From: an uncultured Treponema sp.
GTDB taxonomy: Bacteria; Spirochaetota; Spirochaetia; Treponematales; Treponemataceae
DNA: 39,687 nucleotides
Direction: 5' to 3'
NCBI GenBank assembly: GCA_946061765.1
Contig: CAMGTC010000001.1
Coordinates: forward strand, 1-39,687
The position numbers and the translations under genes are program-made. This document shows positions 12,815-33,104 of the stretch, in pieces. How positions within the stretch are numbered: position 1 is the first letter of the stretch; the number at the start of each line of letters is the position of its first letter. The notes beneath the pieces are model-generated. The model was given only the letters and a program-made list of their open reading frames with translations. It was not told the DNA's origin and did no database searches.

Positions 12815-13630
12815 CTAATTAGTTGTCAGTTCTTCATCTGAAGGTACATACCCAGCATTTTCGTCACTGACAGTAATTTTTATATCTCCAAAAAGTTTAT
12901 TTTGTTTAATCTTTATCATTCTAAATTTACAGGCTTCAAGGATTGCCATAAAAGCACAAACAACATCCATTGTATTTCCCTGATGAGTCAATAAATCAGT
13001 AAACAGACACTCTTTTTTTTCATCCAATAACTCATTCATAAGAGTGATTTTTTCGTTTACAGAAATTTCTTCATACATATCAATTATAGAAGCATCTGAG
13101 TACTTTTCCATAATTGATTTGAATACAGACTGCAACTGTTGAAGTAAATCCCAGGAGTCTATATCTTGCCACATATCGTCATTATCTTCAAATGGCAAAA
13201 CTCTTTCTATCTTTTTTCTTTCGAAATTCCAATCATTATCATCTTCCTGCTCTTCCATAAGGGCAGTCAATTTCTTAAATTTCTGATATTCAATAAGTTT
13301 ATCTACAAGTTCCTGCCTTGGATCTTCTTCATCCTCATCATCATAAGAAACTTCAACAGGAAGAAGCATACGACTTTTTATATAAATAAGCTTAGCTGCC
13401 CAGGTATAAAATTCAGATAAATCTCCCAGATCTGTTTGTACAGCATAATCAAGATATTCAAGATATTGTTCTGTAATCTGAGCGATTGGAATATCATAAA
13501 TATTTATTTTACTTTCATGAATTAAAGTCCAAAGCAAATCTAAAGGACCTTCAAATTCTCCTGCTTTATATTCTCTCTTCTTTTTAGTTTTTACAGAAAC
13601 TTCCGATACATTTTCTGCTACTTTTTCCAT
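12815..13630 (-). CDS. scpA: Segregation and condensation protein ScpA
   Basis: FEGPLDLL, IKSRMLLP, FMAILE motifs; ATG at 13630 preferred over GTG at 13642. Confidence 0.95.
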   Translation of the reverse strand: MEKVAENVSEVSVKTKKKREYKAGEFEGPLDLLWTLIHESKINIYDIPIAQITEQYLEYLDYAVQTDLGDLSEFYTWAAKLIYIKSRMLLPVEVSYDDEDEEDPRQELVDKLIEYQKFKKLTALMEEQEDDNDWNFERKKIERVLPFEDNDDMWQDIDSWDLLQQLQSVFKSIMEKYSDASIIDMYEEISVNEKITLMNELLDEKKECLFTDLLTHQGNTMDVVCAFMAILEACKFRMIKIKQNKLFGDIKITVSDENAGYVPSDEELTTN

Positions 13631-13632
13631 TT

Positions 13633-14157
13633 TTACCACCAAAAATCACAATATTTTTCAACATCTTTATCTGCATTTTTACAATGTAATTCTTCAAGAT
13701 ATTTTGAATATTTTTCTCTTAAATTTTTATCGGCAGTTTCTGAAAAAATCTCAAGTAATGGAATTAAAACAAATGCCCTCTCTTTTATTCTTGGATGAGG
13801 GATTTCCAAAATCGGGCTTTGGATAATTTTATCTCCGAAGATTTCAATATCGATATCAAGAGATCTGGGCCCAAACCTGATTTCCTTACTTCTGTCGCGT
13901 CCATATTTTGCTTCTATAGAATTAATAAATTTCAAGAAATCAAAAGGATCAACAGAATCTTCTATATTCAATGAACAGGCCATGTTATAAAAATCGTTTT
14001 GATTTTCTACATACATGGCCCTAGTTTTGTAAACAGAGGAAAAAGTGGCTTTACTTACTGCATTAGATAAGTCCTTACATGCTGATTTTAAAATCTCCAA
14101 TGAGGACATTCCATTAAAACTAACATTTGAACCTAAACCTAACACAACAAATTGCAT
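13633..14157 (-). CDS. folK: 2-amino-4-hydroxy-6-hydroxymethyldihydropteridine diphosphokinase
   Basis: LGLGSN, GPRSLDIDI, IPHPRIKERAFVLIPL. Confidence 0.95.
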   Translation of the reverse strand: MQFVVLGLGSNVSFNGMSSLEILKSACKDLSNAVSKATFSSVYKTRAMYVENQNDFYNMACSLNIEDSVDPFDFLKFINSIEAKYGRDRSKEIRFGPRSLDIDIEIFGDKIIQSPILEIPHPRIKERAFVLIPLLEIFSETADKNLREKYSKYLEELHCKNADKDVEKYCDFWW

Positions 14158-14177
14158 AATAACTCTAATTAAAACAA

Positions 14178-15356
14178 TTAAAACAAACCATCTGCAAGCG
14201 AAGCCCCAGTAGATTTATCATCTTTTACTTCAGCTTTTCCTTCTTCGGTAATTGTTACTGATTCATCAGCTGCAGCCTTTGCTTTTTTAGCCTTAACAGA
14301 AGTTTCTTCTGCAGTTGCAGTTTTTATACTCTGGCCAGGAAATACCAGTTCCCGGATTTTTTTCTCAATTTCCTTTGCAAGTTCAGGATTACTTTCAATA
14401 TAATTAACTACATTTTCTTTACCCTGACCTATCTTCTCTTCACCCATGTTATACCAGGCACCACGTTTATCGATAATACCATGTTTAACAGCAGAATCTA
14501 ACAAACTTGCAGAAGCCGATATACCTTTTCCAAAGTAAATATCAAGTTCACACTTTCTAAACGGAGGTGCAACTTTGTTCTTAACAATTTTTACTCTTAC
14601 ACGATTTCCAAGAGCATCGTCTTCACCTTTACCATCAATAGTTTCTATACGACGAATATCAAGTCTTACTGAAGAATAAAATTTCAAAGCCTGTCCACCT
14701 GTAGTTGTTTCAGGACTACCAAACATTACGCCAATCTTCATACGAATCTGGTTAATAAAAATAACAATACAATTTGATTTACCAATAATCGCAGTTAATT
14801 TTCTTAAAGCCTGACTCATAAGTCTTGCCTGCGCACCCATTACAGCATCACCCATATCCCCTTCAATTTCTTTCTGAGGAGTCAAAGCCGCAACAGAATC
14901 AACAACAATAATATCAACAGCTCCAGTTCTTACTAACTGTTCAGTAATCTGTAAAGCCTGTTCTCCAGTATCAGGCTGAGAAAGCCACAACTGGTCAATA
15001 TTAACACCAAGATTCTTAGCATAAGTTGGATCCAAAGCATGTTCAGCATCAACAAAAGCCGCAATTCCCCCCAGTTTCTGAGCTTCGGCAATTGCATGCA
15101 GAGCAAGTGTAGTTTTACCAGAACTTTCTGGTCCGAACATCTCAATTACACGTCCGCGTGGATATCCGCCAATTCCTAAAGCCTCATCAAGAAGAATAGA
15201 GCCCGAAGGAATAACATCAATTCCAGACATGTCAACAGCATCGCCCAGTTTCATGATTGAACCTTTACCAAACTGTTTTTCAATCTGAAGACGAGCAACT
15301 TCCAGCGCTTTTAATTTTTCAGCAGTTTCTTCTGCAGTAGCGTTTTCTTTTATCAT
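14178..15356 (-). CDS. recA: Recombinase RecA
   Basis: [34 protein letters not shown]. Confidence 0.99.
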
Positions 15357-15439
15357 AATTAGCCACCTTCCTCCCTATAATATATATGGCCGAGATAAGA
15401 CTTTTTTGTCAAAAAAAAATCAAATTTTTTTTAATTTTT

Positions 15440-16534
15440 TTATTTATCATATACACTCTGGTAAACAGCTCTACCTTTTAAGAAGATAGAACCGTCTTCC
15501 ATACTTATTTTACCCAATATTCTGGCACTTTGCTCTCCGATTATACTAGGAACGGCATCAAATTTAACATTAACGCTTCCTTCATAATGTAAAAGAGAAT
15601 CATCTCCAACAAGTAAATCACAAGAAAAAGAATTGTCGGAATAAGTATTTGCATTTGAGATTTTTCCGCCCCAATCTACCCAGCAATCTAAATAAAGATA
15701 AGGATTATTCTTAACTTCAGAAAAAGTAGGGACATCTGTAATTGTATTAAAATTTGGAACTTCAAAATAAGTTGCCAACACCTGTGCCTTTTGTTTTATT
15801 GATAAAAGAGCATCTGAATTTAATATATAATTGACTTCTACCTGAGCAGCATTATCACGATTTTCCTGAAAATACTGAAGGGCATTATTATATTTTTTGT
15901 TAATTTCTTTATTTGTTAAAACATATCTAAAAGACTGAGTTGTTAAATCTTTTTCTTTAGCAGAATTTTTCTCTTCAGAAGTTAATTCAAGTTGAGATAA
16001 ATCAGCTCTACTTTGATTAATTTTTGGTTTTGCAGGAAAGATAAAAAGTGCCACAAAACAACCTACAAGGCAGGCAAAAAGAGGAAGAACAATTGCAGAA
16101 ACTTTATCTGGATTAACTCCAAGTTGTGGATAAAACTGTTCAATTCTGCCAGTGTCTACCCAACGGCAAATTTTATCATAATCTCCATGAGTTCTTATAA
16201 ATTCAATGGCTTCAATAGCTGTTTTATTTCCAGGTTCATTATCTTTTACTTCCAGATAATATTGCAAGGCCCTGTTGGTTTCACCGCGGCGAAGAAAAAT
16301 TGCAGCCTGCCCCAATAAAAGTCTAGTATCTACAAGTTTTATTTTACGGGCCTTTTGAAAATATGAAGATGCAGAACCAATATCTCCAGCATAAAGACAA
16401 GCTATTCCCAAAAGAAGATAATATTCAAAATTTTCTTCATAAATATCTGAACGGCTTTCCAATAGCTGAATAGCAGAGGCAAAATGACGTCTTTTCATTT
16501 CATGCCAAGCTATAGTCAGTGAATCCTTAGTCAT
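15440..16534 (-). CDS. TPR-containing membrane protein
   Basis: N-terminal TPR patterns (LLLGIACLYAGD, LLGQAAIFL) and one central TM helix. Confidence 0.8.
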   Translation of the reverse strand: MTKDSLTIAWHEMKRRHFASAIQLLESRSDIYEENFEYYLLLGIACLYAGDIGSASSYFQKARKIKLVDTRLLLGQAAIFLRRGETNRALQYYLEVKDNEPGNKTAIEAIEFIRTHGDYDKICRWVDTGRIEQFYPQLGVNPDKVSAIVLPLFACLVGCFVALFIFPAKPKINQSRADLSQLELTSEEKNSAKEKDLTTQSFRYVLTNKEINKKYNNALQYFQENRDNAAQVEVNYILNSDALLSIKQKAQVLATYFEVPNFNTITDVPTFSEVKNNPYLYLDCWVDWGGKISNANTYSDNSFSCDLLVGDDSLLHYEGSVNVKFDAVPSIIGEQSARILGKISMEDGSIFLKGRAVYQSVYDK

Positions 16535-19996: not shown

Positions 19997-20429
19997 TAGT
20001 TCGAATTTCGAATTTTAATTGGAAATGCATAAAATTGATTGTTATAATTGCTTTTGCATTATGAAAATACTGCCAGTCAGAAAGCGACTGTCAAAACCGC
20101 TACCGCCTGCCTGACGGCAGTCAGGGCGTTGCTACATGCGCAAGTCGGCAAGGAAACTACCGTTTCCGACTTGCGAATGTTTTTGCCAGCCTCTTTCTTC
20201 CTTCCCGTGTTTTCATAATTAAACGTTTAAAATAGATGGCTTAAATTTCGCCATCTATTTTAAGTCTCGAGTTTTTTTGCAAAAACTCTTTTTATTTACG
20301 TGTTCGCTTGCGCGAACGTTTTGTAAATCCTCAGCTGTTGAAACAACTTGCGGTTTACAAAATTAAAGAATAATTTGTTTGTAAAATCTATTTTATGTTT
20401 AATTTTCTAAAAACTCGAATTTCGGGCTA
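19997..20429. mobile_element. Non-coding MITE-like element with imperfect terminal inverted repeats and nested hairpins
   Basis: Left end TAGTTCGAATTTCGAATTTT..CATAAAATTGATT mirrors right end AATCTATTTTATG..AAAAACTCGAATTTCGGGCTA; parts are repeated at 1-137 and 39606-39687; no transposase ORF. Confidence 0.6.
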
Positions 20430-21214: not shown

Positions 21215-21961
21215 ATGAACGAGTTACCTATAAAACTAGAAAAATGTCCTCTAGTTGAGACTATTCTCGAACTTAGATTTAAATCTTCTCTGCCAGATGA
21301 TGCTGTTTTTGGAGTAGTATATCAGGCTCTCTCAAAAAAATTTGATACATTTACACCTAAAAGACAGGGTATATTGGATCTTCCTGAAGAAGCAAGAAAC
21401 TTTGATCCAAATATGAAGTATCAACCATATTACCAATTGGTTAATGATAATTTATCAATTGGCATAGGTCCTAGATCAATTATTTTTTCAAACAGAGCAC
21501 CCTATAAAGGTTGGAAATTTTTTAAGGATTTTGTTATATCTGCACTTGAATTAGTAAAATCTAGTTCGGCAGTTCATGAAATCGAACGAATAGGTTTAAG
21601 ATATATTAATTTAATTGATAAATCATTATCTGAAACAACAAATTTGAATATTTCATTATGTGGAATGTTGAAAGAATCATCTGATGTTTCAACTTTAAGA
21701 CTCGAAAAAAGAATCGATGCAAATAAAATGATTATTTTTCAATTAAATGATAATGTATTAATAAGCATAAATAATTCTCCTGCAAAGAAAGCTTCAATGA
21801 TTGATATTGATGCAATAAATACAGAGTGTTTTAAATTTCAAGAAATTGAAATGAAAATACTTGATGAAACATTAGACAATTTGCATAAACTTGAAAAGAA
21901 ACATTTTTTTGCACTTCTTGATAGTAATTATTTAGATTCTTTAGAACCAATTTACGAATAA
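21215..21961 (+). CDS. TIGR04255-like family protein
   Basis: N-terminal LEKCPLVETILELRF, central PYKGWKFFK and RIGLRYIN, C-terminal IDIDA..LDNLH..EKKHFF, recognised by eye. Confidence 0.75.
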   Translation: MNELPIKLEKCPLVETILELRFKSSLPDDAVFGVVYQALSKKFDTFTPKRQGILDLPEEARNFDPNMKYQPYYQLVNDNLSIGIGPRSIIFSNRAPYKGWKFFKDFVISALELVKSSSAVHEIERIGLRYINLIDKSLSETTNLNISLCGMLKESSDVSTLRLEKRIDANKMIIFQLNDNVLISINNSPAKKASMIDIDAINTECFKFQEIEMKILDETLDNLHKLEKKHFFALLDSNYLDSLEPIYE

Positions 21962-21978
21962 AAGTACCGAGGTTCGTA

Positions 21979-22248
21979 ATGATAAAATATGTAACAATAG
22001 CAGGAACAATAGCCCTTGCAACTACAATCACTGTAACACCAATATCTCAAGTTATGAAAACAAATACAGCCTCAAATAATTCGTTTATTTCCATAAAAAA
22101 TGAAACTTCTCCATATTGCCCTACAGAAGTTATTTATATTGAAATAGATGATTCAACTCCAACCGATGATGTAATTGAAGTATCAATAAAAGGAACCATA
22201 CCAACAGAATTATGTCAAAGTAAAAAGATGGAATTTGAGTGGTTCTAA
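21979..22248 (+). CDS. Small hypothetical protein with hydrophobic Thr-rich N-terminus and acidic C-terminal half
   Basis: SD GAGGT upstream; 17 bp after the previous gene and 3 bp before the next. Confidence 0.7.
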   Translation: MIKYVTIAGTIALATTITVTPISQVMKTNTASNNSFISIKNETSPYCPTEVIYIEIDDSTPTDDVIEVSIKGTIPTELCQSKKMEFEWF

Positions 22249-22251
22249 TAT

Positions 22252-22809
22252 ATGTCGAATTGGTTTTTAGAAATACATAATGATACATCTCTAGAACAAG
22301 GTGATATTATTGAAAATTGTAGAATAATATGTCCTGGAGAGACCGAATATCACGCACTCCTACAAGAAAATCCTACTCATGTTGATATGAATTATATTGA
22401 ATGCGATTGCATCATAATGTCTCAATCATGTGATTTAGAAAACAATAAAATTAAATATGTGATTTTATGTCCAATTGCAACTCTTCAAAACGCAATGAAA
22501 TCATTTGAATTATTAAAATCAAAAGAAGGTCGGGAACAATTGCGTCAAGGAAATCTGCCTTCATATCACCTTCTTGATAGATTTACACTAAAAGGTGTAA
22601 CTGATTTTTACTGCGTTAGTTTCCATAACATATTCTCAATACCTAAAGAATATCTAAAAGCGCTGGTAAAAGACAAAAATAGATTACGTCTTGTTTCTCC
22701 ATACAAAGAACATTTATCCCAAAGTTTTGCAAGATACTTTATGAGAGTTGGTTTGCCATCTGGTATTGATAAAGAAGAATTAAAAGCTTGCAAGTTTATA
22801 GAGAATTAA
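22252..22809 (+). CDS. Conserved-looking hypothetical protein (possible PemK/MazF-like fold)
   Basis: LEQGDII, IIMSQSCDL, VILCPI and RLVSPYKEHLSQSFARYFMRVGLP motifs; SD GAGTGG. Confidence 0.7.
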   Translation: MSNWFLEIHNDTSLEQGDIIENCRIICPGETEYHALLQENPTHVDMNYIECDCIIMSQSCDLENNKIKYVILCPIATLQNAMKSFELLKSKEGREQLRQGNLPSYHLLDRFTLKGVTDFYCVSFHNIFSIPKEYLKALVKDKNRLRLVSPYKEHLSQSFARYFMRVGLPSGIDKEELKACKFIEN

Positions 22810-23067: not shown

Positions 23068-23889
23068 TTACCAAGTTACAATCTGATCAACAATTTCCTG
23101 TTGCTCACTAGCAGTTCGCCTGAGGTAAATACGAGTTGTTTCAATACTTTCGTGTCCCATCAAATCAGCAAGTAAAGAAATATCATTGAACTTTTCTAGA
23201 AAGTTCTTAGCGTAACGATGCCGGAAAGAATGAGGATAAACGACCTTTGTGCTTATGCCATATTTTGCAGCATAAGTTTTAAGCTGTGTTGCAATTCCGC
23301 GTGTGGTAATCCGTTCTCCAAAACGATTAAGAAAAACATATCCAAAAGTTCTGTTTATAGATTTAAGCCAGGCTTGGGCTTCTTCACGTAATAGTTTTGG
23401 AATATACAAACGACGAAGTTTTCCGCCTTTTGAGTATAAATCAAACCAGCCGATATTTACGTGCTCAACTTTGATTTGAGTAAGTTCACTTACACGGGCT
23501 CCTGTTGCTCCTAGAAACCATACTACAAAATACCATTCGATATTTCCATCTGCTTTAAGCTGTGCTTTGAAATATTGATAATCGGCATTACTTATCACAT
23601 TTTCCAGAAAGTTTTTCTGCTGGACCTTTACCTGTTTAAGCTGCATTTTATCTTTACCAATAAAAACAAGATACTTGTTGATTGCCTGAATACGAAGATT
23701 CACGGTCTTTGGCTTAAAGTATTCCAAAAGCCAGCCTTTGTAGGCAAGAAGATTTTCTTTTGAAAAGTCTTCATAGTTTTCTGTGTAATACTTAATAGTC
23801 CAGAGATAAGAAGTAACAGTATTTTCCGAAAGATTTTGTTTTCGTAAATGCTGCTCAAAAGGTGTTTGTTGATTAATTTGCTTTTTCAT
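23068..23889 (-). CDS. Tyrosine recombinase/invertase associated with the hsdS locus
   Basis: Catalytic TGARVSE, KGGK, HSFRH, GHESIETTRIY; ATG 23889 with SD GGAGG. Confidence 0.92.
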   Translation of the reverse strand: MKKQINQQTPFEQHLRKQNLSENTVTSYLWTIKYYTENYEDFSKENLLAYKGWLLEYFKPKTVNLRIQAINKYLVFIGKDKMQLKQVKVQQKNFLENVISNADYQYFKAQLKADGNIEWYFVVWFLGATGARVSELTQIKVEHVNIGWFDLYSKGGKLRRLYIPKLLREEAQAWLKSINRTFGYVFLNRFGERITTRGIATQLKTYAAKYGISTKVVYPHSFRHRYAKNFLEKFNDISLLADLMGHESIETTRIYLRRTASEQQEIVDQIVTW

Positions 23890-24062
23890 AAAAGCCTCCA
23901 ATAAGTTTTTTGTGCACTAAAAAGTGCTTTATTGGAGAAGTTATCCCATTTATTGCAAATATAACACTTTATACTTGCACATCTTTAATTTTTATCATAA
24001 TGTAAGAAAATAAAAGTATTTATATTTGCATAAAATACATAACTAGAGGAGATTTTGAAAAT

Positions 24063-25286
24063 ATGAACCTGATTCGTGAAGATTATTTGAAGCTTATACG
24101 ACCATATTATGATGTAGACCTGATAAAAGTTATAACAGGCGTTCGCCGCTCTGGAAAATCAGTTTTAATGGAAACTATAAAAGACGAAATTCTTGCAAAT
24201 GGTGTAAAAGGTTCTCATATAATAAGCATCAATCTTGAAGATTTGGATTATTCGTTTATTACAGATATAAAAGATCTTCACAAAGAAATAGAAAGTCGAA
24301 TTATAGACCAGGAAAAATACTATATATTTCTTGATGAAATTCAGCATGTAGAAAACTTTGAAAAACTTCTTGCATCACTTAAAGCAAAATTCAATTGCTC
24401 TATTTTTGTTACAGGCAGCGATTCTACAATGCTTTCTGGAGATCTCGCAACTCTTTTAACAGGAAGAACTGTAGAATTTGAGATTTTTCCGTTTAGCTTT
24501 AAAGAGTCAGTGGATTATATGGCATTAAATAACATTGAATGTAATCCCGATGAATTTATAAAAGACTATATAAAATGGGGCGGCTTTCCCTTACGCTTTA
24601 GCTTTAGGGAAGAAACTTCTATAAAACGCTTCTTGGATAATTTATATTCAAACATCATAAACCGAGACATAATAAAAAAATCAAGCAAGATGGATAAAAA
24701 ATCTTTTAAGGATATTTCCCTTTATATTATGTCCAATGCAGGAAAAGAATTTTCTGCCCAAAACCTTGCAAATTACTATTCAACAAAATGTAAGAAATCA
24801 GTAAGCACCAGAACCATTTATAATTATCTGGAAAAACTGCACAAGGCTTACATTCTCCATTCCTGCAAAAAATACAACATTACAGGAAAAGCAGCCTTAG
24901 ATTCTTCAGATAAGTTTTATGCCACTGACACAGGATTTCGAACTTTAAACACTAACACTATAAACTATGAGGATACTTTTTTTCTAGAAAACATTATTTA
25001 TAATGAACTTCTGATTCAGGGATTTACAGTCTATACAGGAAAAACTTTTAAAGGCGAAATTGATTTTGTGGCAATAAAAGATAACAAGAAATGTTTTATA
25101 CAGGTAGCTTATCTTCTTTCCTCAGAAAACACAATCAAGCGTGAATTTGGTGCATATGACAAGATAACAGATGCATCTCCTAAATATGTGCTTTCTCTAG
25201 ACAAAATTGATTTAAGCCATGATGGTATAGAACATCTTAATATCGTTGATTTTCTTTTGCATAAGGTAAGTTTGCATTTATCGTAA
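24063..25286 (+). CDS. AAA+ ATPase (AAA_14 + DUF4143-type) with C-terminal PD-(D/E)xK-like domain
   Basis: ITGVRRSGKS, FLDEIQ, VTGS, LTGR, KFYATDTG, LENIIYNEL, GEIDFV..IQVAY. Confidence 0.88.
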   Translation: MNLIREDYLKLIRPYYDVDLIKVITGVRRSGKSVLMETIKDEILANGVKGSHIISINLEDLDYSFITDIKDLHKEIESRIIDQEKYYIFLDEIQHVENFEKLLASLKAKFNCSIFVTGSDSTMLSGDLATLLTGRTVEFEIFPFSFKESVDYMALNNIECNPDEFIKDYIKWGGFPLRFSFREETSIKRFLDNLYSNIINRDIIKKSSKMDKKSFKDISLYIMSNAGKEFSAQNLANYYSTKCKKSVSTRTIYNYLEKLHKAYILHSCKKYNITGKAALDSSDKFYATDTGFRTLNTNTINYEDTFFLENIIYNELLIQGFTVYTGKTFKGEIDFVAIKDNKKCFIQVAYLLSSENTIKREFGAYDKITDASPKYVLSLDKIDLSHDGIEHLNIVDFLLHKVSLHLS

Positions 25287-25306: not shown

Positions 25307-25327
25307 CAGACCTTATGAGAAGGTGGA
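25307..25327 (+). repeat. Inverted repeat (left) of the hsdS inversion segment
   Basis: CAGACCTTATGAGAAGGTGGA is the exact reverse complement of 26326-26346. Confidence 0.95.
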
Positions 25328-25811
25328 GCTTTCAGAAATAGATTGGACTTTACCTAATAATTGGTGCTTATGTCATTTTGGCGATATAGCAACTGTAATA
25401 AATGGGAAGAACCAATCAAAGGTTGAAAACCCAAATGGAAAGTATCCTATTTATGGCAACGGTGGAATAATGGGTAGAGCTTATGACTATATTTGTCCTG
25501 AAAACTGTACAATTATTGGAAGAAAGGGGTCAATAAATAATCCAATTTTTGTTGAAGAAAAGTTTTGGAATGTAGATACAGCCTTTGGCTTATCTCCCTC
25601 CGAAGCGGTATTGCCTAGGTTCTTGTTTTATTTCTGTGAATATTTTGATTTTACAACATTAGATTCAAGTACAACCTTACCATGTCTTACAAAAACAAAT
25701 ATTCAGCAAATTATTTTTGCTTTACCTCCGATAGAGGAACAGAAACGAATCTTAGATAAAACAAATGAATTATTTGATAAATTAAACGAGATTATTCTGA
25801 ATTTGGTCTAA
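25323..25811 (+). CDS. hsdS: Silent type I R-M specificity half-gene (alternative C-terminal TRD)
   Basis: LPNNWCLCHFGDI, IIGRKGSI, LPPIEEQKRI; single TRD, in frame with RPYEKVE encoded by the repeat. Confidence 0.88.
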   Translation: MELSEIDWTLPNNWCLCHFGDIATVINGKNQSKVENPNGKYPIYGNGGIMGRAYDYICPENCTIIGRKGSINNPIFVEEKFWNVDTAFGLSPSEAVLPRFLFYFCEYFDFTTLDSSTTLPCLTKTNIQQIIFALPPIEEQKRILDKTNELFDKLNEIILNLV

Positions 25812-27632
25812 AACTTTATATAATTCTTCAATTTTATAAACAATTCTATTTTGTTCATTTAATGGAGGAAGAGGTATCAAAGTTGAGATTATTTTTTCTT
25901 TCGAAATATTGGGCTGAGCTCCTCCAAATCCCTGTTGTATAAATTCGTTTTTATGTTGCATTAGAAAATAAAAAAGATACTTATAAAAAATTCCTTGATA
26001 ATCAGAACAAACACAACAGGCTTGATTTGTTGTTGAAGGGAATGAAAGTATTCCTAATTTGCCTATAGTCGCACCATACATAGCTATACAAACTGAATTT
26101 GCAGGATTTAGTTTTAATGAAGTTTGTTTATAAGCTAAATCTGTTATTTTATTTGGGATATTAGTGATAAAATTGTCATTAAGATCGCCTGTTAACATCC
26201 AAGGTATTGTTCCATTTTTATAATAATCTATATTTTTTTTATTTGGTGTACATCCAGCTTTCCAAGTTCCTATCATTCCAAGATTACACCAACACCAAGA
26301 ATCAGGAATCTCAAACGGTTCTTCTTCCACCTTCTCATAAGGTCTGTTATCATTTGTCGCAATGCGCTTTAGAAGTTCTTCGGCAGGCTCGTCGTTCGGG
26401 TCTTGAGGAACAAGTTTACCGTGAATGGCGAGGTCAAGGATTTTGGATTTTGTTTTGTTAATTGCGGTTTGTAGGTCTGATTTTTCATTATCAAGTATAT
26501 CTATTTGAGAAAATGATTCTTCAATTGATTCGACAATTTTTTCTTGTGTTTTTATTGGTGGTAAAGGAAATAAAACCTGTTTTACAGTATCTGATTTTAA
26601 GTTCTTTACAGTTGAACCAGCTGCAACCATTGAAAATGAAGCATAAATGTAATCGGAACTTAATGCATAGTACAGATAATCTTTTATTACACATTCTTTA
26701 ATATTTGCAAAAACTAACCAACCGTCATGTATACAGCCATTAATCTTTAATATGTATGGCCGTCCGAAACTCATTGAGTTTGTAAGAAGAAAATCACCTT
26801 CATGTACAAAGCGTGAATGCTTTTGACCTTCAGGCTTAATCTTTTCTTTTGCGGATTCTATATATTTACTTTCAGGTGCGGTATCCCCAATTTTTATCCA
26901 ATTTATACCATTTAGTGAATCTGTTATGTAATTCTCAATTGGACGAGGAGAACCACCTCGGGCAATATCAGCAAGTTCATTTAATCTACACCAAGCCCAT
27001 CCTTCCGGCACCTCAAACGGAATCTCATCTTCAATATCTTTTACTGTACCATCAGCGAACTGCTCATAATGCCGTTTATGTCGTGTTCCTGAGGAACACT
27101 TACCGAGTTTGTCTTCGTCAAACTCGCACTCTTTTGTGAATATAAAAGAATCCTTTTTGTCAGTTTTTAGTTCACCACGTCTGCCGGCGGGCAGGCTTTT
27201 TTTGATTTTCTCTGCTTTTTCTGCTCTGATTTTTTCGAGCAAAACGGTTGCACTTTCCCAATTCTCAGGTTTATCAACAACTTCATTTTTGAACCATTCT
27301 CTCCCGCAGCCAGATTTTAGATACTTTTCCCTTTCTATGGCAGATTTTTCACTATAATGAATCTCCCAATAAAATAATTGCTTCGGCTTATGAGTTTTTG
27401 TCCATTCTGCACCAATTCCAGCACAATGTTGCTTATATCTTTTTATTAAATCAGTTGTAAATCCTTTATAAAATGAGCCGTCAACACATTCAATAACATA
27501 TACAAACCATTGTCCTTCTTTTTCAGCAGGGATATTTTCAAGGGATTTGCCTGCCTGCCGGCAGGCAGGAGGAACAAGTTTTCCGTGAATTGCGAGGTCC
27601 AATATTTTCTGTCGTAGTGCTTTAGTGTTCAT
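25782..27632 (-). CDS. hsdS: Type I R-M specificity subunit with an in-frame GIY-YIG nuclease insertion
   Basis: Two TRDs (VPEGWAWCRL..PLPPIKTQ; IPDSWCWCNL..PLPPLNEQNRIV), duplicated KILDLAIHGKLVP, inserted FVYVIEC..YKGFT..R..QH..EREKYLK. Confidence 0.92.
   Translation of the reverse strand: MNTKALRQKILDLAIHGKLVPPACRQAGKSLENIPAEKEGQWFVYVIECVDGSFYKGFTTDLIKRYKQHCAGIGAEWTKTHKPKQLFYWEIHYSEKSAIEREKYLKSGCGREWFKNEVVDKPENWESATVLLEKIRAEKAEKIKKSLPAGRRGELKTDKKDSFIFTKECEFDEDKLGKCSSGTRHKRHYEQFADGTVKDIEDEIPFEVPEGWAWCRLNELADIARGGSPRPIENYITDSLNGINWIKIGDTAPESKYIESAKEKIKPEGQKHSRFVHEGDFLLTNSMSFGRPYILKINGCIHDGWLVFANIKECVIKDYLYYALSSDYIYASFSMVAAGSTVKNLKSDTVKQVLFPLPPIKTQEKIVESIEESFSQIDILDNEKSDLQTAINKTKSKILDLAIHGKLVPQDPNDEPAEELLKRIATNDNRPYEKVEEEPFEIPDSWCWCNLGMIGTWKAGCTPNKKNIDYYKNGTIPWMLTGDLNDNFITNIPNKITDLAYKQTSLKLNPANSVCIAMYGATIGKLGILSFPSTTNQACCVCSDYQGIFYKYLFYFLMQHKNEFIQQGFGGAQPNISKEKIISTLIPLPPLNEQNRIVYKIEELYKVLDQIQNNLV
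26326..26346 (-). repeat. Inverted repeat (right) inside the expressed hsdS, just before TRD2
   Basis: TCCACCTTCTCATAAGGTCTG, reverse complement of 25307-25327. Confidence 0.95.
27550..27569. repeat. Perfect 20-bp REP-like palindrome CCTGCCTGCCGGCAGGCAGG
   Basis: Read directly; variant copies at 20106-20125 and 27176-27195. Confidence 0.9.
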
Positions 27633-27669: not shown

Positions 27670-28722
27670 TTAGTAATTATCAGAAGTATTGTCAAGAAAA
27701 AGTTTTATTCGCTGTTGCAAAAGCTTTTTATTCGGTAAATGTAATTTATATTCTGCAACCATAGTAGGTGAAAGACTACGGCTAAGAGCATACTCCACCA
27801 CATCATCGTCTTTATCGCGGCATAAAAGGATTCCAATACTCGGATTTTCTTTTGGCTTTTTTACGTCTCTGTCTAATGCTTCAAGATAAAAGTTTAATTG
27901 CCCCAAATGTTCTGGTTCAAATTTGCCGGTTTTCAATTCAAATGCAACCAAACACTGTAATTCCCTGTGATAAAAAAGTAAATCCACAAAAAAATCCGTA
28001 TTACCAACTTGAAGCCTGTATTCTTCATCTATAAAAATAAAGTCCTTGCCTAGTTCTAATATAAATTGTTTCATGTTGCGGACAAGAGCTTTTCTTAAAT
28101 CTTTTTCATCGTGTTTTTGCGGTAATCCTAAGAATTCCAATGTATATGAATCTTTGAAAATCTCTTTTGCATTCGGAACAATTTCTTTTACTACCGGAGA
28201 AACAATCAGATTATTGTCTGCTATGGTCTCAAAAAGTCTTGAATCAATTTGTCTGTTTAATTCTCTGACACTGTAGTGCTCTTTTATTGTCTTTTGAATA
28301 TAAAAAGCCCTTTCTTCGCTCGTTTTGCATCTTGAAAATATCTGCAAATTCTGCGACCAGGACAATTCTCTCAACAGCGTTGAGAGTTTTTCATCATCTT
28401 TGTAAGTTTCATAAAACTGTTTCATTCTCCAAAGATTTTTATCTGAAAAACCTTTGGACTCAGGCTGTGCTTTTTCAATATATTCTGAAAGCTCTTTTAC
28501 AACTCCTTTTCCCCATTTCGAAGCAGTCACTCTTTCGCTTATATATTTTCCAAGAGAAAAATACAAGTCAATCAAAGTTCTGTTTACTGATGAATATGCC
28601 TTTATATGTGCATTTTTTATCATCAAAACTACATTCTCAAAATCTTTTTCCCATTCCTCAGACAAATCGTATGTAGTTTCTATATTTACTGAGTTATTTT
28701 GCCGTAATGCTTTTGTGTTCAT
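27670..28722 (-). CDS. YhcG/DUF1016-family PD-(D/E)xK nuclease domain protein
   Basis: KGFSDKNLWRMKQFY, LSWSQN, KDSYTLEFL, DLLFYHRELQCLVAFELK, GQLNFYL, IGILLC. Confidence 0.9.
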   Translation of the reverse strand: MNTKALRQNNSVNIETTYDLSEEWEKDFENVVLMIKNAHIKAYSSVNRTLIDLYFSLGKYISERVTASKWGKGVVKELSEYIEKAQPESKGFSDKNLWRMKQFYETYKDDEKLSTLLRELSWSQNLQIFSRCKTSEERAFYIQKTIKEHYSVRELNRQIDSRLFETIADNNLIVSPVVKEIVPNAKEIFKDSYTLEFLGLPQKHDEKDLRKALVRNMKQFILELGKDFIFIDEEYRLQVGNTDFFVDLLFYHRELQCLVAFELKTGKFEPEHLGQLNFYLEALDRDVKKPKENPSIGILLCRDKDDDVVEYALSRSLSPTMVAEYKLHLPNKKLLQQRIKLFLDNTSDNY

Positions 28723-28726
28723 CTAA

Positions 28727-30291
<1,565 letters not shown>

Positions 30292-30299
30292 ACTCATTT

Positions 30300-33104
30300 T
30301 TATGCTGCCTTTCCATAGAATAAGTATTTAGATATAGTCTGCATTTCTGAATTTAATTTGTCTGCTCCAAAAATTGGAATTGCTTTAACAAATAAATCAT
30401 GTTTTGCATTATTAAGTTCAATATTAGTTACACATCCGTTTTGCACGATATATTCTGCAATCTGCTGTACAATTTCAACTTGTTCAGGAGTAAACTTTCT
30501 CCATGCTTGTCCACAGTAAAGATTGAAGTAACTACCAAATCTTCGCTTTAATGAAACAAGTTCTTTTTCAATCTTAAATCCATATCTTACTAGCTGAATA
30601 AGATTTGTTAAAACTCCTAGTTCAGTTTCTTTATTGAGCGGTTTTACATTTCCAGTTTCACCGTCTAAAGTCTGATAACAGGTCCATAAGAATTCTGACT
30701 TTAACTGATTGTTATAAGCTATAAGTTTCTTTTCCAAATCTTTGAGCATAGAATAAGTAATAGCAACTTTTTCCTGATTATAAAGAATTCTTAAAGCTTC
30801 AACTTCATCTTTGTTATCTTCAAGAAATTTTTCAAAAGTATCAATGTATTGTTTTGCCTGTTCTTTAGAGAAGCCTGCCGAAACTAAAGTATCTGTTTTT
30901 TCTACTGCAATCTTTATAAATCCTGCATTAATTTCAAGTAGCTTTTTACGAGCTTTCAAATTATTAATCAATGCTGAAATTAAAATCTTTCGTTCTTTGT
31001 TTTCATCATTAATATCTTTGTATTCTGGCAGTTTGTATGTTTCAGGCGCGATTGTCTCATAAATATTCATTGCAAGCTGTTTTACTGTAATGCTGCCAAG
31101 TAATTCATTAAGCTCAATTAAATCTTCTGCTTCTGCTTTTTTATTTACATTAGACAAATATCCTGCAAGCAAACTTAAGTTTTCATCAGGTACTTCGCCA
31201 TGTGCAAGATGTTCAAGCAAATCTTTAAGAGATAAAACCTTTTTGCCGGGTCCTTTACCTGGTGTTGGCATAGACTTTTCATGTTCAGTTACACCAACTG
31301 CATCAACAAGGTAATAACAGTCTTTTGAATTAGCATTGGTTGTAACATTTCGAAGTTTATCATCAGCAATTGTACGGCAGCCACGGCCTTTCATCTGTGT
31401 GTATAAAACTTCAGAATTGATATCCCTCATAAATACAAGGATTTCAAGAGGTCTAACATCAGTTCCAGTTGCAACAAGAGTTACTGTAATTGCAATACGA
31501 AAATCTTTGTTGTTTCTAAAGTCACTAATCAACTGATTTGAGTTTCCAGATTTACAAGTAATGAGCTGGGCAAAATGTTCCGGCAATTTCTTATCAGGGA
31601 ATTCTTCTTTGAATACTTTTTCAATAGCTTTCAAAATATCCTGAGCATGACTTTCTTTCTTAGCAAAAAATAAAGTTTTAGGAATCATATACCAGTTCTT
31701 TTCTCTTTCTGGATATAATGATTCATAAATTGAGTCTTTATATGCTCTAACTACAGTTTCAATTTGAGAAGGTACTACAACACTTCTGTCTATTTCAGTT
31801 TTTGTAAACTGCTTTTCTTCTTTCTGTTTCTGTGTTTGAGATTGACCAGTCCAGTTCGAAACTTTCTTTACTTTTTCGCCGTCTTTAAGAGTCCCTCCAG
31901 CTTCTGAAATCTCAGTCTTAATTCTGTAAACTCTTGGAGGTACGTTAACACCATCAGCAATCGATTTTTCAAGAGTATAATTTACAACACGATTCTTATT
32001 AAAGAAAGCTTCTGCTTCTGGAGTAGGAGTTGCAGTAAGTCCGATTATTTTTACGTTAGAAAAATACGTGAGAACTTGCTGCCAGTCTCCATAAATTGAA
32101 CGGTGACATTCATCAATAATAATTACATCAAAGAAGTCTGGTGGCAAAAGAACATTACCAGTAAGTTGAACCTGTTTTCCTGGAGTGTCTTCATCGTGCT
32201 CCATTTCTTCATCATCATCAGGCTCATCAACTTCTTGCCCTGTAAGAGCTGCAAAAAGTCTCTGGATTGTAGAAATTACAACACTGGCGTTTCCAATCTT
32301 TTCAACATTTCTAAGACGGTGAACAATATATTCATCAGAAAAAGCATTTCCGGTTTCTGTTAATTTATAAGTTCCAAATTCACCTTCAGCCTGTTTACCA
32401 AGATTATTACGGTCTACAAGGAAAAGAACTCTTTTTGCTCCCATGTAATTTAATAGACGATAGGCGGCTGTACAAGCAGTAAAGGTTTTTCCAGCTCCTG
32501 TTGCCAAAACAATAAGAGCTTTTTTAAGGCCTTGCTTAAAAGATATTTCAAGATTTGTTATTGCTTCTGCCTGGCACTCTCGTAAACCTTTTGGTCCAAC
32601 AGGAGGAAGAGCTGGAAGCTTAGCATATTGTGAGTTAATATCATCGCCTGCAAGATTTACAATTTCTTTAGGAGTGAACATCTTTTTAAGAACTTTATAA
32701 CTTGGCTTTGCTTCGCGCATATCCTTAAAAAGCAATGTGTTTCCATTACAAAGAAAAATAAAAGGAAGTGGAGTTTTCCAGGCTTGTACCCAATCAGGAA
32801 GAATATTTCCGTAATTCTGTGCTTGTTCAGCAACTTCAAGACCAAGTTTATTTTCTTCTCTTTTAGCTTCAAGAACAGCAATAGCCTTTCCATCAAGATA
32901 CAAAATGTAGTCAGCTTCAAGATTACCTTTCATAAGATTTTCTTCAACAGCCTGAGCATTTACAGCGTCAGGTGTAAAGTCATCTCGAGGAACAACAGTC
33001 CAGCCGGAATCTTTCAACATCTGATTAATTTTTACACGAGCTTTCTGTTCCGGTAAAAGTGAATCAAAATCATTTCTACTATGGGGTTTCTTGTATTCAG
33101 TCAT
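30300..33104 (-). CDS. hsdR: Type I R-M restriction/translocase subunit
   Basis: Nuclease ADYIL..VLEAK, helicase LATGAGKT, DECHR, TAT, QMKGRGCR. Confidence 0.96.
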   Translation of the reverse strand: MTEYKKPHSRNDFDSLLPEQKARVKINQMLKDSGWTVVPRDDFTPDAVNAQAVEENLMKGNLEADYILYLDGKAIAVLEAKREENKLGLEVAEQAQNYGNILPDWVQAWKTPLPFIFLCNGNTLLFKDMREAKPSYKVLKKMFTPKEIVNLAGDDINSQYAKLPALPPVGPKGLRECQAEAITNLEISFKQGLKKALIVLATGAGKTFTACTAAYRLLNYMGAKRVLFLVDRNNLGKQAEGEFGTYKLTETGNAFSDEYIVHRLRNVEKIGNASVVISTIQRLFAALTGQEVDEPDDDEEMEHDEDTPGKQVQLTGNVLLPPDFFDVIIIDECHRSIYGDWQQVLTYFSNVKIIGLTATPTPEAEAFFNKNRVVNYTLEKSIADGVNVPPRVYRIKTEISEAGGTLKDGEKVKKVSNWTGQSQTQKQKEEKQFTKTEIDRSVVVPSQIETVVRAYKDSIYESLYPEREKNWYMIPKTLFFAKKESHAQDILKAIEKVFKEEFPDKKLPEHFAQLITCKSGNSNQLISDFRNNKDFRIAITVTLVATGTDVRPLEILVFMRDINSEVLYTQMKGRGCRTIADDKLRNVTTNANSKDCYYLVDAVGVTEHEKSMPTPGKGPGKKVLSLKDLLEHLAHGEVPDENLSLLAGYLSNVNKKAEAEDLIELNELLGSITVKQLAMNIYETIAPETYKLPEYKDINDENKERKILISALINNLKARKKLLEINAGFIKIAVEKTDTLVSAGFSKEQAKQYIDTFEKFLEDNKDEVEALRILYNQEKVAITYSMLKDLEKKLIAYNNQLKSEFLWTCYQTLDGETGNVKPLNKETELGVLTNLIQLVRYGFKIEKELVSLKRRFGSYFNLYCGQAWRKFTPEQVEIVQQIAEYIVQNGCVTNIELNNAKHDLFVKAIPIFGADKLNSEMQTISKYLFYGKAA

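Follow-up and report, generated by a model that had tools for sequence, protein, structure and literature searches.

An in-frame GIY-YIG nuclease insert in a Treponema HsdS, probably an end-decayed copy of a hairpin-ended selfish cassette

Results

The insert and its host locus

The window analysed here is a whole stretch of 39,687 nt from an uncultured Treponema sp. (contig CAMGTC010000001.1). It carries on its minus strand a type I RM locus composed of hsdR, hsdM, a YhcG gene and hsdS (Table 1). The hsdS product has two TRDs with conserved repeats and is linked to hsdM and hsdR, as expected of a type I RM specificity subunit. The tyrosine recombinase encoded nearby is likely the invertase of the TRD2 segment, whose inversion is predicted to make specificity phase variable; the GIY-YIG insert described below falls outside this segment. 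The YhcG ORF (27670-28722) has the N-terminus MNTKALRQ, which is also the N-terminal peptide of hsdS, with codons that differ synonymously, and this suggests a duplicated hsdS start. Beside the RM locus lie an AAA_14/DUF4143 ATPase, PDC-S01 in PADLOC, and a TIGR04255 gene next to two neighbours that have no annotation (24063-25286, 21215-22809), a neighbourhood that is possibly a small defence island.

Table 1. Features of the hsdS locus and of the insert that it carries
Feature	Position	Strand	Remark	Basis
hsdS	25782..27632	-	Type I RM specificity subunit, 616 aa, carries the insert	ORF; Pfam Methylase_S x2; PADLOC Specificity_I; Foldseek top matches are HsdS structures
hsdM	28727..30172	-		Pfam, PADLOC
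hsdR	30300..33104	-	EcoEI-type C-terminus, full-length ORF	ORF list, Pfam, PADLOC
YhcG/DUF1016 PD-(D/E)XK gene	27670..28722	-	Between hsdM and hsdS	Pfam
Whole insert, 312 nt (aa 22-125)	27258..27569	-	Stands in place of Q(N/D)PND, five codons present in the empty allele	Empty alleles in runs X10, X17; empty Treponema loci L010, L028, L035, L055
Perfect 20-bp palindrome (PACRQAG), solo hairpin	27550..27569	.	Equals both cassette ends joined	20/20 identical in L014, L015
16-nt remnant of host QDPND codons, shifted frame (KSLEN)	27534..27549	-	Inferred for the window copy	KTLxxNP-type linkers in relatives
GIY-YIG cassette body, 276 nt (aa 34-125)	27258..27533	-	Left end decayed (IPAEKEG vs LPAPRPG), right end lost	Gapless alignment
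GIY-YIG catalytic domain	27312..27512	-	Y45, Y55, G57, R65, H69, E102	Pfam PF01541
Second palindrome variant, 21 nt, in frame (LPAGRRG)	27175..27195	-	63 nt downstream of the cassette	
QDPND, empty copy of the insert target	26391..26405	-	Central conserved repeat of the same hsdS; direct repeat D2	
Predicted invertible TRD2 segment	25307..26346	.		21-bp inverted repeats at 25307-25327 and 26326-26346
Spare TRD	25323-25811	+	Part of the predicted invertible TRD2 segment	
Tyrosine recombinase	23068..23901	-		Pfam Phage_integrase

An initial annotation had placed a GIY-YIG domain in frame within HsdS, and a profile search bears this out (PF01541 at aa 41-107, E 6e-14; score 52.5 bits, cut-off 22.6). 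Residues 22-125 are flanked by KILDLAIHGKLVP and ESATVLLEKI, at the place where the central repeat of the same protein has QDPND. Misassembly is rejected, both junctions being bridged by at least 31 letters in contigs from five of eight runs (X5, X6, X10, X14 and X15), which are independent and come from four gut studies. Contigs of X10 and X17 also hold an empty hsdS allele, in which 311 nt are skipped and 14 other letters, ordinary QNPND codons, are found. Because of these 14 letters, and because it was found in a DNA run, the empty form is a separate allele and not an excision product; the insert is a real allele. Contigs of four RNA-library runs include the insert, although contig coverage is not evidence of transcription, and they hold no precise skipped joint (contigs drop rare forms).

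The initial annotation had described one extra segment. An in-frame segment is indeed present, but it consists of three pieces and replaces five host codons instead of being added to them. It does begin at a perfect palindrome, as had been stated, whereas the nuclease cassette itself begins 16 nt later, at 27533. The frame is kept, palindrome and remnant adding up to 36 nt (20 + 16). When the palindrome is deleted in silico, L014 regains QDP and L015 regains QDPNDEP, and the window sequence reads QIP followed by a stop. In the protein P0087 the palindrome stands alone at the codon of the insert. The palindrome is best regarded as an insertion of 20 nt in its own right. The rest (aa 34-125) can be aligned, with no gap inside it, to 40 intact 282-bp cassettes of the family described below, at 36-50% identity. 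We infer the following order of events: the cassette entered at QDPND^EPAS, the 20-nt palindrome then entered five codons upstream together with one compensating base, and the right end was lost last. The comparison with Treponema HsdS orthologues that had been proposed at the outset did turn up empty alleles (L010, L028, L035 and L055). The 21-nt LPAGRRG variant, which the initial annotation had overlooked, is missing from five empty loci and from P0051.

The GIY-YIG domain is predicted to fold independently, as three strands plus helices (domain model pLDDT 92.5). In the model of the whole HsdS (pTM 0.49) the linkers have a pLDDT below 50, and the position of the domain relative to the TRDs is not placeable. 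Tyr, Tyr, Arg and Glu, as well as His, are invariant across 43 aligned cassette rows, and we take the first four to be catalytic by analogy. The top nine VIA structure rows are GIY-YIG or likely GIY-YIG, and the nearest solved relative is UPF0213 1zg2 (E 7e-11 by sequence, 7e-5 by Foldseek). HIGLE (Z 6.8, rmsd 3.0, 84 aligned) and Slx1 (Z 6.2, rmsd 3.2, 82 aligned) are fold neighbours with middling Z scores; both are branched-DNA nucleases, although a shared fold shows no function.

A 282-bp parent cassette in unrelated host genes

Metagenomes were scanned with an alignment of palindrome-flanked GIY-YIG proteins. At least 597 stretches were matched, 444 were confirmed and the best 80 were analysed; being ranked by likeness to an HsdS-borne query, this sample overstates HsdS and gives no rate of out-of-frame insertion. 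The best 80 of the 444 confirmed loci hold 82 copies. Both 12-nt ends (at most two mismatches) are present in 65 of them, and the other 17 were excluded from the length count. Length is 282 bp in 64 of the 65 two-ended copies and 303 bp in the remaining one. These 65 cassettes are spread over 55 distinct sites, which tend towards GA^YG: 44 have G at -2, 42 have A at -1, 48 have C/T at +1 and 39 have G at +2. Their uniform codon phase follows from the procedure that locates the ends and is not evidence. In silico removal of the cassette restores QDPND-EPAS in HsdS, HVFDD-GP in MsrB and KKLPD-GNFEVGIHIADVS in RNase R, and in none of these three cases is a target-site duplication left. The families themselves come from Pfam, and the latter two strings correspond to motifs of MsrB and RNase R.

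The cassette has neither start nor stop codon and lies in frame inside host ORFs. A second Pfam domain was found in 35 of 39 host ORFs picked for variety, the host domains including LeuRS, ArgRS, FDX-ACB (PheT-type), UvrB, RNase R, MsrB, cobalamin adenosyltransferase, SNF2 helicases, HsdM and HsdR. Cassette ends are kept as DNA, with a wobble conservation of 88-100% against 32-55% in the core; these terminal inverted repeats are conserved as DNA in the parent 282-bp form, and the window copy is without the right one. Pfam finds no recognised transposase (DDE, HUH, Tyr/Ser recombinase) inside the insert, only GIY-YIG. The median dN/dS is 0.22 among the 194 of 2278 cassette pairs that are unsaturated. 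No very recent hop between unrelated sites was seen among 68 distinct cassettes, whose top identity is 77%.

At the protein level, many domains are flanked by LPAPRPG and GR(A/T)RQAG, that is, by the two palindrome halves. A search with the domain only against 1.84 billion representatives returned 340 at ≤1e-10, and 147 of the best 150 were new. By hand count, 109 of these 147 nearest clusters contain Methylase_S and are HsdS fusions, and in others the domain lies inside HsdR, a type IIG enzyme, MsrB, TfoX and PD-(D/E)XK proteins. No NCBIfam or PADLOC model matches the insert domain. Searching PLSDB plasmids gave nothing at 1e-15, and none of 401 genomes from the family to which a Prevotella-type genome belongs was matched (a search with no positive control). 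A phylum sample gave six matches in 401, four of them free-standing genes without hairpin. Against viral contigs, the cassette alignment matched one locus, a free-standing gene. The split-end DNA pattern was also tried there and discarded: it matched 23 loci, none with a GIY-YIG, most of them chance-like and two being pairs of solo palindromes. The idea of a palindrome-associated GIY-YIG mobile unit that landed in frame, one of two offered by the initial annotation, is supported, and it proves far more general than one gene.

Two further arrangements were noted in this material. A Flavobacteriaceae locus (L016:7254-8966 and 13027-16251) has related GIY-YIG inserts in both HsdS and HsdR. The HsdS P0193 has GIY-YIG and DUF559 nuclease domains, hinting at a second in-frame nuclease family.

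Lateral movement and selection of the HsdS-borne copies

A search with HsdS aa 1-215 returned 7074 proteins at E ≤0.001. GIY-YIG and Methylase_S occur together in 119 of the best 120, and the domain lies in the N-terminal repeat in 118 of the 120 and in the central repeat in two. In a tree of 197 cores (78 residues), the window belongs to a clade of 21 (FastTree support 0.96), in which 20 tips have the palindrome at the same HsdS site and the remaining tip is a fragment. This clade stands beside, not inside, the main intact-ended clade. Since deep nodes are weak, descent of the window copy from the 282-bp form rests on alignment register and not on the tree; comparison of the window clade at the DNA level comprises four copies.

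Filled alleles are interspersed with empty alleles. The window flanks are 95% identical to the empty Treponema locus L028 and 76% identical to the nearest foreign filled allele, and the window core is 87% identical to that of P0056, whose flanks are of another type. Likewise, the central insert of P0087 is bordered by flanks that resemble empty central repeats (88%), and its core resembles N-terminal inserts (89%). Such comparisons show, at the level of sequence, that the window-type insert moved laterally between HsdS lineages at one conserved site. Much of the descent is also vertical, because flank and core identities correlate among filled alleles (Spearman 0.41, 21 non-independent sequences). 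The allele is found in two of 338 genomes of the genus, and one further genome has a related insert at another site. The empty repeat is retained in the same gene in 112 of the best 120 filled proteins, and none of the 120 is doubly filled. In four runs, one variant place lies inside the insert and 11 in about 110 nt of nearby flank.

The initial annotation had suggested computing dN/dS on the insert. In the cores of the window, L014 and L015, pS is 0.84-0.92 (saturated) and pN 0.18-0.26, against a pN of 0.27-0.35 in the HsdS flanks; there is no neutral decay, and the substitution pattern shows the core to be under purifying selection. The palindrome is identical at 20 of 20 positions among the same three copies despite the saturated synonymous sites. 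All six catalytic-site residues are preserved in 116 of the 120 homologues, the exceptions being His to Asp in three and Arg to Cys in one. Third-position GC is 0.24 in the insert and 0.23 in the host gene.

Solo palindromes and mini-hairpins

The palindrome at 27550-27569 is perfect, not extendable, and present as a single exact copy in the 2.84-Mb genome. Perfection alone is not rare here, this palindrome being one of 35 with a length of at least 18 bp. The same 20-mer, however, is found at 39 distinct sites in viral contigs and at the same hsdS codon in two distant genomes, a recurrence that exceeds chance, unlike bare palindromy. Flanks of the viral solo palindromes have a weak GA bias (12/39), and one of 40 viral palindrome loci has a GIY-YIG of the cassette kind within 1.5 kb.

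In 67 de-duplicated loci (327 kb) we found 25 mini-hairpins with cassette-type ends, compared with none in shuffles and none among 36 empty hsdS loci. Their density is 3.4 per 10 kb within 250 nt of a cassette and 0.16 at 2-4 kb. Solo hairpins are 18-39 nt long; length is divisible by three in 14 of the 17 mini-hairpins located in host ORFs (four of the 14 in one locus). HsdS proteins of the window's clade contain about a dozen more in-frame palindrome peptides, at varied places.

Several loci deserve separate description. L208:937-1949 (G329) has four hairpins in 1 kb (one at the hsdM 3' end, one in each hsdS repeat and one in a linker); its GIY-YIG is preceded by a palindrome plus out-of-frame host codons, and is followed by a stop and then a second hsdS start. 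In a viral contig (L098:515-816), a palindrome splits a tRNA-like 5' end, and a free-standing GIY-YIG gene follows directly downstream; ARAGORN predicts no tRNA at this place. G355 has about 26 palindrome variants (L226-L245), many at GA^T or GA^C within other intergenic repeats, and the SRM pattern is unmatched in them once the palindrome is removed. These were left uncounted as products of an hsdS-borne nuclease because they are located inside another intergenic repeat. In the window itself, positions 20066-20190 are one member of an intergenic repeat family, with a hairpin at 20106-20125. About 25 genomic copies of this repeat bear a two-mismatch variant of the palindrome. Four copies have no hairpin, yet they are not precise empty sites, and the repeats were rejected as filled and empty site pairs.

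Discussion

We conclude that the insert is probably an end-decayed copy of the 282-bp GIY-YIG cassette and, reasoning by analogy, that this cassette is likely a selfish unit of hairpin and nuclease that would be translated as part of its host and act in the manner of Ssn/NTS while being no Ssn member by motif. This reading is supported by the existence of a cassette family with DNA-level ends and precise, duplication-free insertion, by the three-part anatomy found in relatives, by lateral spread at a single HsdS site, by purifying selection and by the clustering of mini-hairpins. The cassette likely spreads selfishly by nicking at its own hairpin. The nuclease is predicted to be translated as part of HsdS and, as SsnA does, would nick ssDNA at a neighbouring hairpin. 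Nicking could seed new hairpin copies nearby, and it could also make the segment recombinogenic, in which case host recombination would copy it into other hsdS repeats. The window copy should not hop like the intact form because its right end is lost. GIY-YIG enzymes are hydrolases with no known strand-transfer step, so the sealing of a precise insertion is unaccounted for by the selfish-unit reading. Against it also, the predominance of HsdS fusions among the nearest clusters (109/147) fits co-option as well. Further points that weigh against it are the failure to catch a very recent hop, the correlation of flank and core identities, the scarcity of such GIY-YIG genes close to viral palindromes, and the position of the window clade outside the main intact-ended clade.

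Co-option would mean that an element of selfish origin, having lost its ends after arrival, is now retained for the help that an HsdS-tethered nuclease gives to restriction; the nuclease might, for instance, nick DNA close to unmethylated sites or cut ssDNA as it enters. This would explain why catalytic residues are kept in 116 of 120 homologues though the ends are lost, why core pN is lower than that of the conserved HsdS flank, and why all site-visible clade members (20 of 21 tips) share one HsdS site; moreover, lying outside the invertible segment, the insert is retained in both phases. We consider it unlikely, since gut samples with the filled allele also contain empty alleles whose flanks are nearly identical, the filled allele is confined to so few genomes of the genus (2/338), hsdR is a full-length ORF, and the palindrome is conserved at the DNA level, something that a role of the protein would not require. 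Furthermore, no PADLOC model matches the domain, which also occurs in non-defence proteins. The domain is likely not a second blade for phage defence. The tethered backup nuclease for restriction put forward by the initial annotation finds no positive evidence, the domain being present in tRNA synthetases, RNase R and MsrB as well, and near-identical empty hsdS alleles coexisting with the filled one; on the other hand, the unique and decaying insert that would have spoken against that proposal is not what we found.

The nuclease might instead be cargo kept mainly for folding, cassettes and hairpins being moved in trans (for example by an HUH/REP-type transposase) or by ordinary hsdS repeat recombination. 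Precise, duplication-free insertion does resemble IS200/IS605 chemistry, a parallel also drawn in PMC11893778. Repeats of hsdS recombine routinely, and solo palindromes are mostly far from any GIY-YIG. Folding alone, however, would not fix Tyr, Arg, His and Glu in every one of 43 aligned cassettes, and mini-hairpins cluster within 250 nt of the cassette, which makes a passenger quite improbable. We find it very improbable that the domain is a classical homing endonuclease that cuts empty GKLVP-QDPND-EPAS dsDNA, repair then copying the insert in. Use of one site across HsdS lineages would agree with homing, and so would a single variant place in the insert against 11 in about 110 nt of flank, as after a recent sweep; but the empty target is kept in cis by 112 of 120 filled proteins with none doubly filled, there is no separate DNA-binding module, and the parent cassette is found at 55 different sites. 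Finally, splicing or excision of the insert, or an assembly artefact, would allow HsdS to be made without it, and the ability of the ends to form hairpins and the occurrence of cassettes in essential genes are compatible with this. The idea is nevertheless barely credible in view of junctions bridged in five runs, of a sole insert-skipping form that has 14 other letters and comes from a DNA run (contigs drop rare forms), and of the lack of any visible intein or RNA-intron hallmark.

Beyond the selfish-unit reading of this insert, we tentatively raise the possibility of a mobile-element class with the smallest known footprint: about 280 bp, with a GIY-YIG mobiliser and hairpin-half ends, devoid of promoter, start and stop, and expressed only as a permanent domain of the invaded protein. 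In the window lineage such an element would be locked to HsdS: the restriction system could not shed the 20-nt hairpin without switching itself off, because its loss would frameshift the specificity subunit. The family would be new in kind if the GIY-YIG is the mobiliser, and a variant of a MITE with cargo if another enzyme moves the cassette. No description of the cassette was found in the literature covered, most subscription journals lying outside that coverage.

Should the nuclease move the cassette, the chemistry of its transposition would belong to none of the DDE, HUH and recombinase classes, and bacteria would have a way to acquire entire domains in frame, with even tRNA synthetases among the recipients. 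A large number of the 'GIY-YIG fusions' annotated in RM proteins would then be parasitism and not added defence, which bears on the discovery of defence systems by domain fusion. Filled and empty hsdS alleles with near-identical flanks offer a ready comparison of parasite and co-option, and a 92-aa hairpin-specific nuclease or scar-free in-frame inserter is a potential tool.

Comparison with known systems

SsnA (CDD cd10448; Chenal et al. 2025, PMC11893778) is a small GIY-YIG that binds a hairpin in ssDNA and cuts beside it, and that article offers an IS-like repeat-gene-repeat layout as a hypothesis and draws the IS200/IS605 parallel. A single small GIY-YIG of about 95 aa linked with hairpin repeats is common to Ssn/NTS and to our case, and the Tyr-Tyr-Glu spacing is similar (Y6, Y17 and E64 in SsnA; Y45, Y55 and E102 in the window). 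SsnA is described there as a free-standing gene with repeats that are mostly intergenic (2% in genes), whereas the window domain is embedded in a 616-aa HsdS ORF; 'fused', 'fusion' and 'in-frame' do not occur in the main text. The window cassette also differs from Ssn in having no start or stop, in lying inside host ORFs and in its hairpin. The SRM motif has no match in the window and lies within 500 nt of one of 82 cassettes, and because this test failed the window domain is not filed as an Ssn member and works like Ssn at most. The protein L155 has a cd10448-like C-terminal motif and falls outside the window clade.

Passages of PMC9881135 and PMC12707154 cover hsdS inversion and one type I locus in which a GIY-YIG domain has its own CDS, and they contain no HsdS fusion. 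UPF0213/YhbQ and Slx1/HIGLE, the nearest solved folds, are free-standing or eukaryotic repair proteins without hairpin ends. GIY-YIG homing endonucleases of the I-TevI type and inteins are selfish nucleases in conserved stretches of host genes. Unlike them, the cassette has no DNA-binding module or splicing sign and uses many target sites, and its empty targets persist in cis. REP/RAYT and IS200/IS605 elements have hairpin ends, a short target bias, no target duplication, and short non-autonomous derivatives near the enzyme gene. The cassette shares hairpin ends, short target bias, absence of duplication and nearby short derivatives with them, but they use an HUH tyrosine transposase where the cassette has a GIY-YIG embedded in host frames. 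Rickettsia palindromic elements (RPEs) and other in-frame MITEs are inserted in frame in unrelated genes and translated within them, according to PMC10969869, and the solo 18-39-nt hairpins described here behave alike. As presented there, RPEs are about 150 bp long and encode a peptide without an assigned enzyme, whereas here the long form encodes a nuclease between the ends of the short form.
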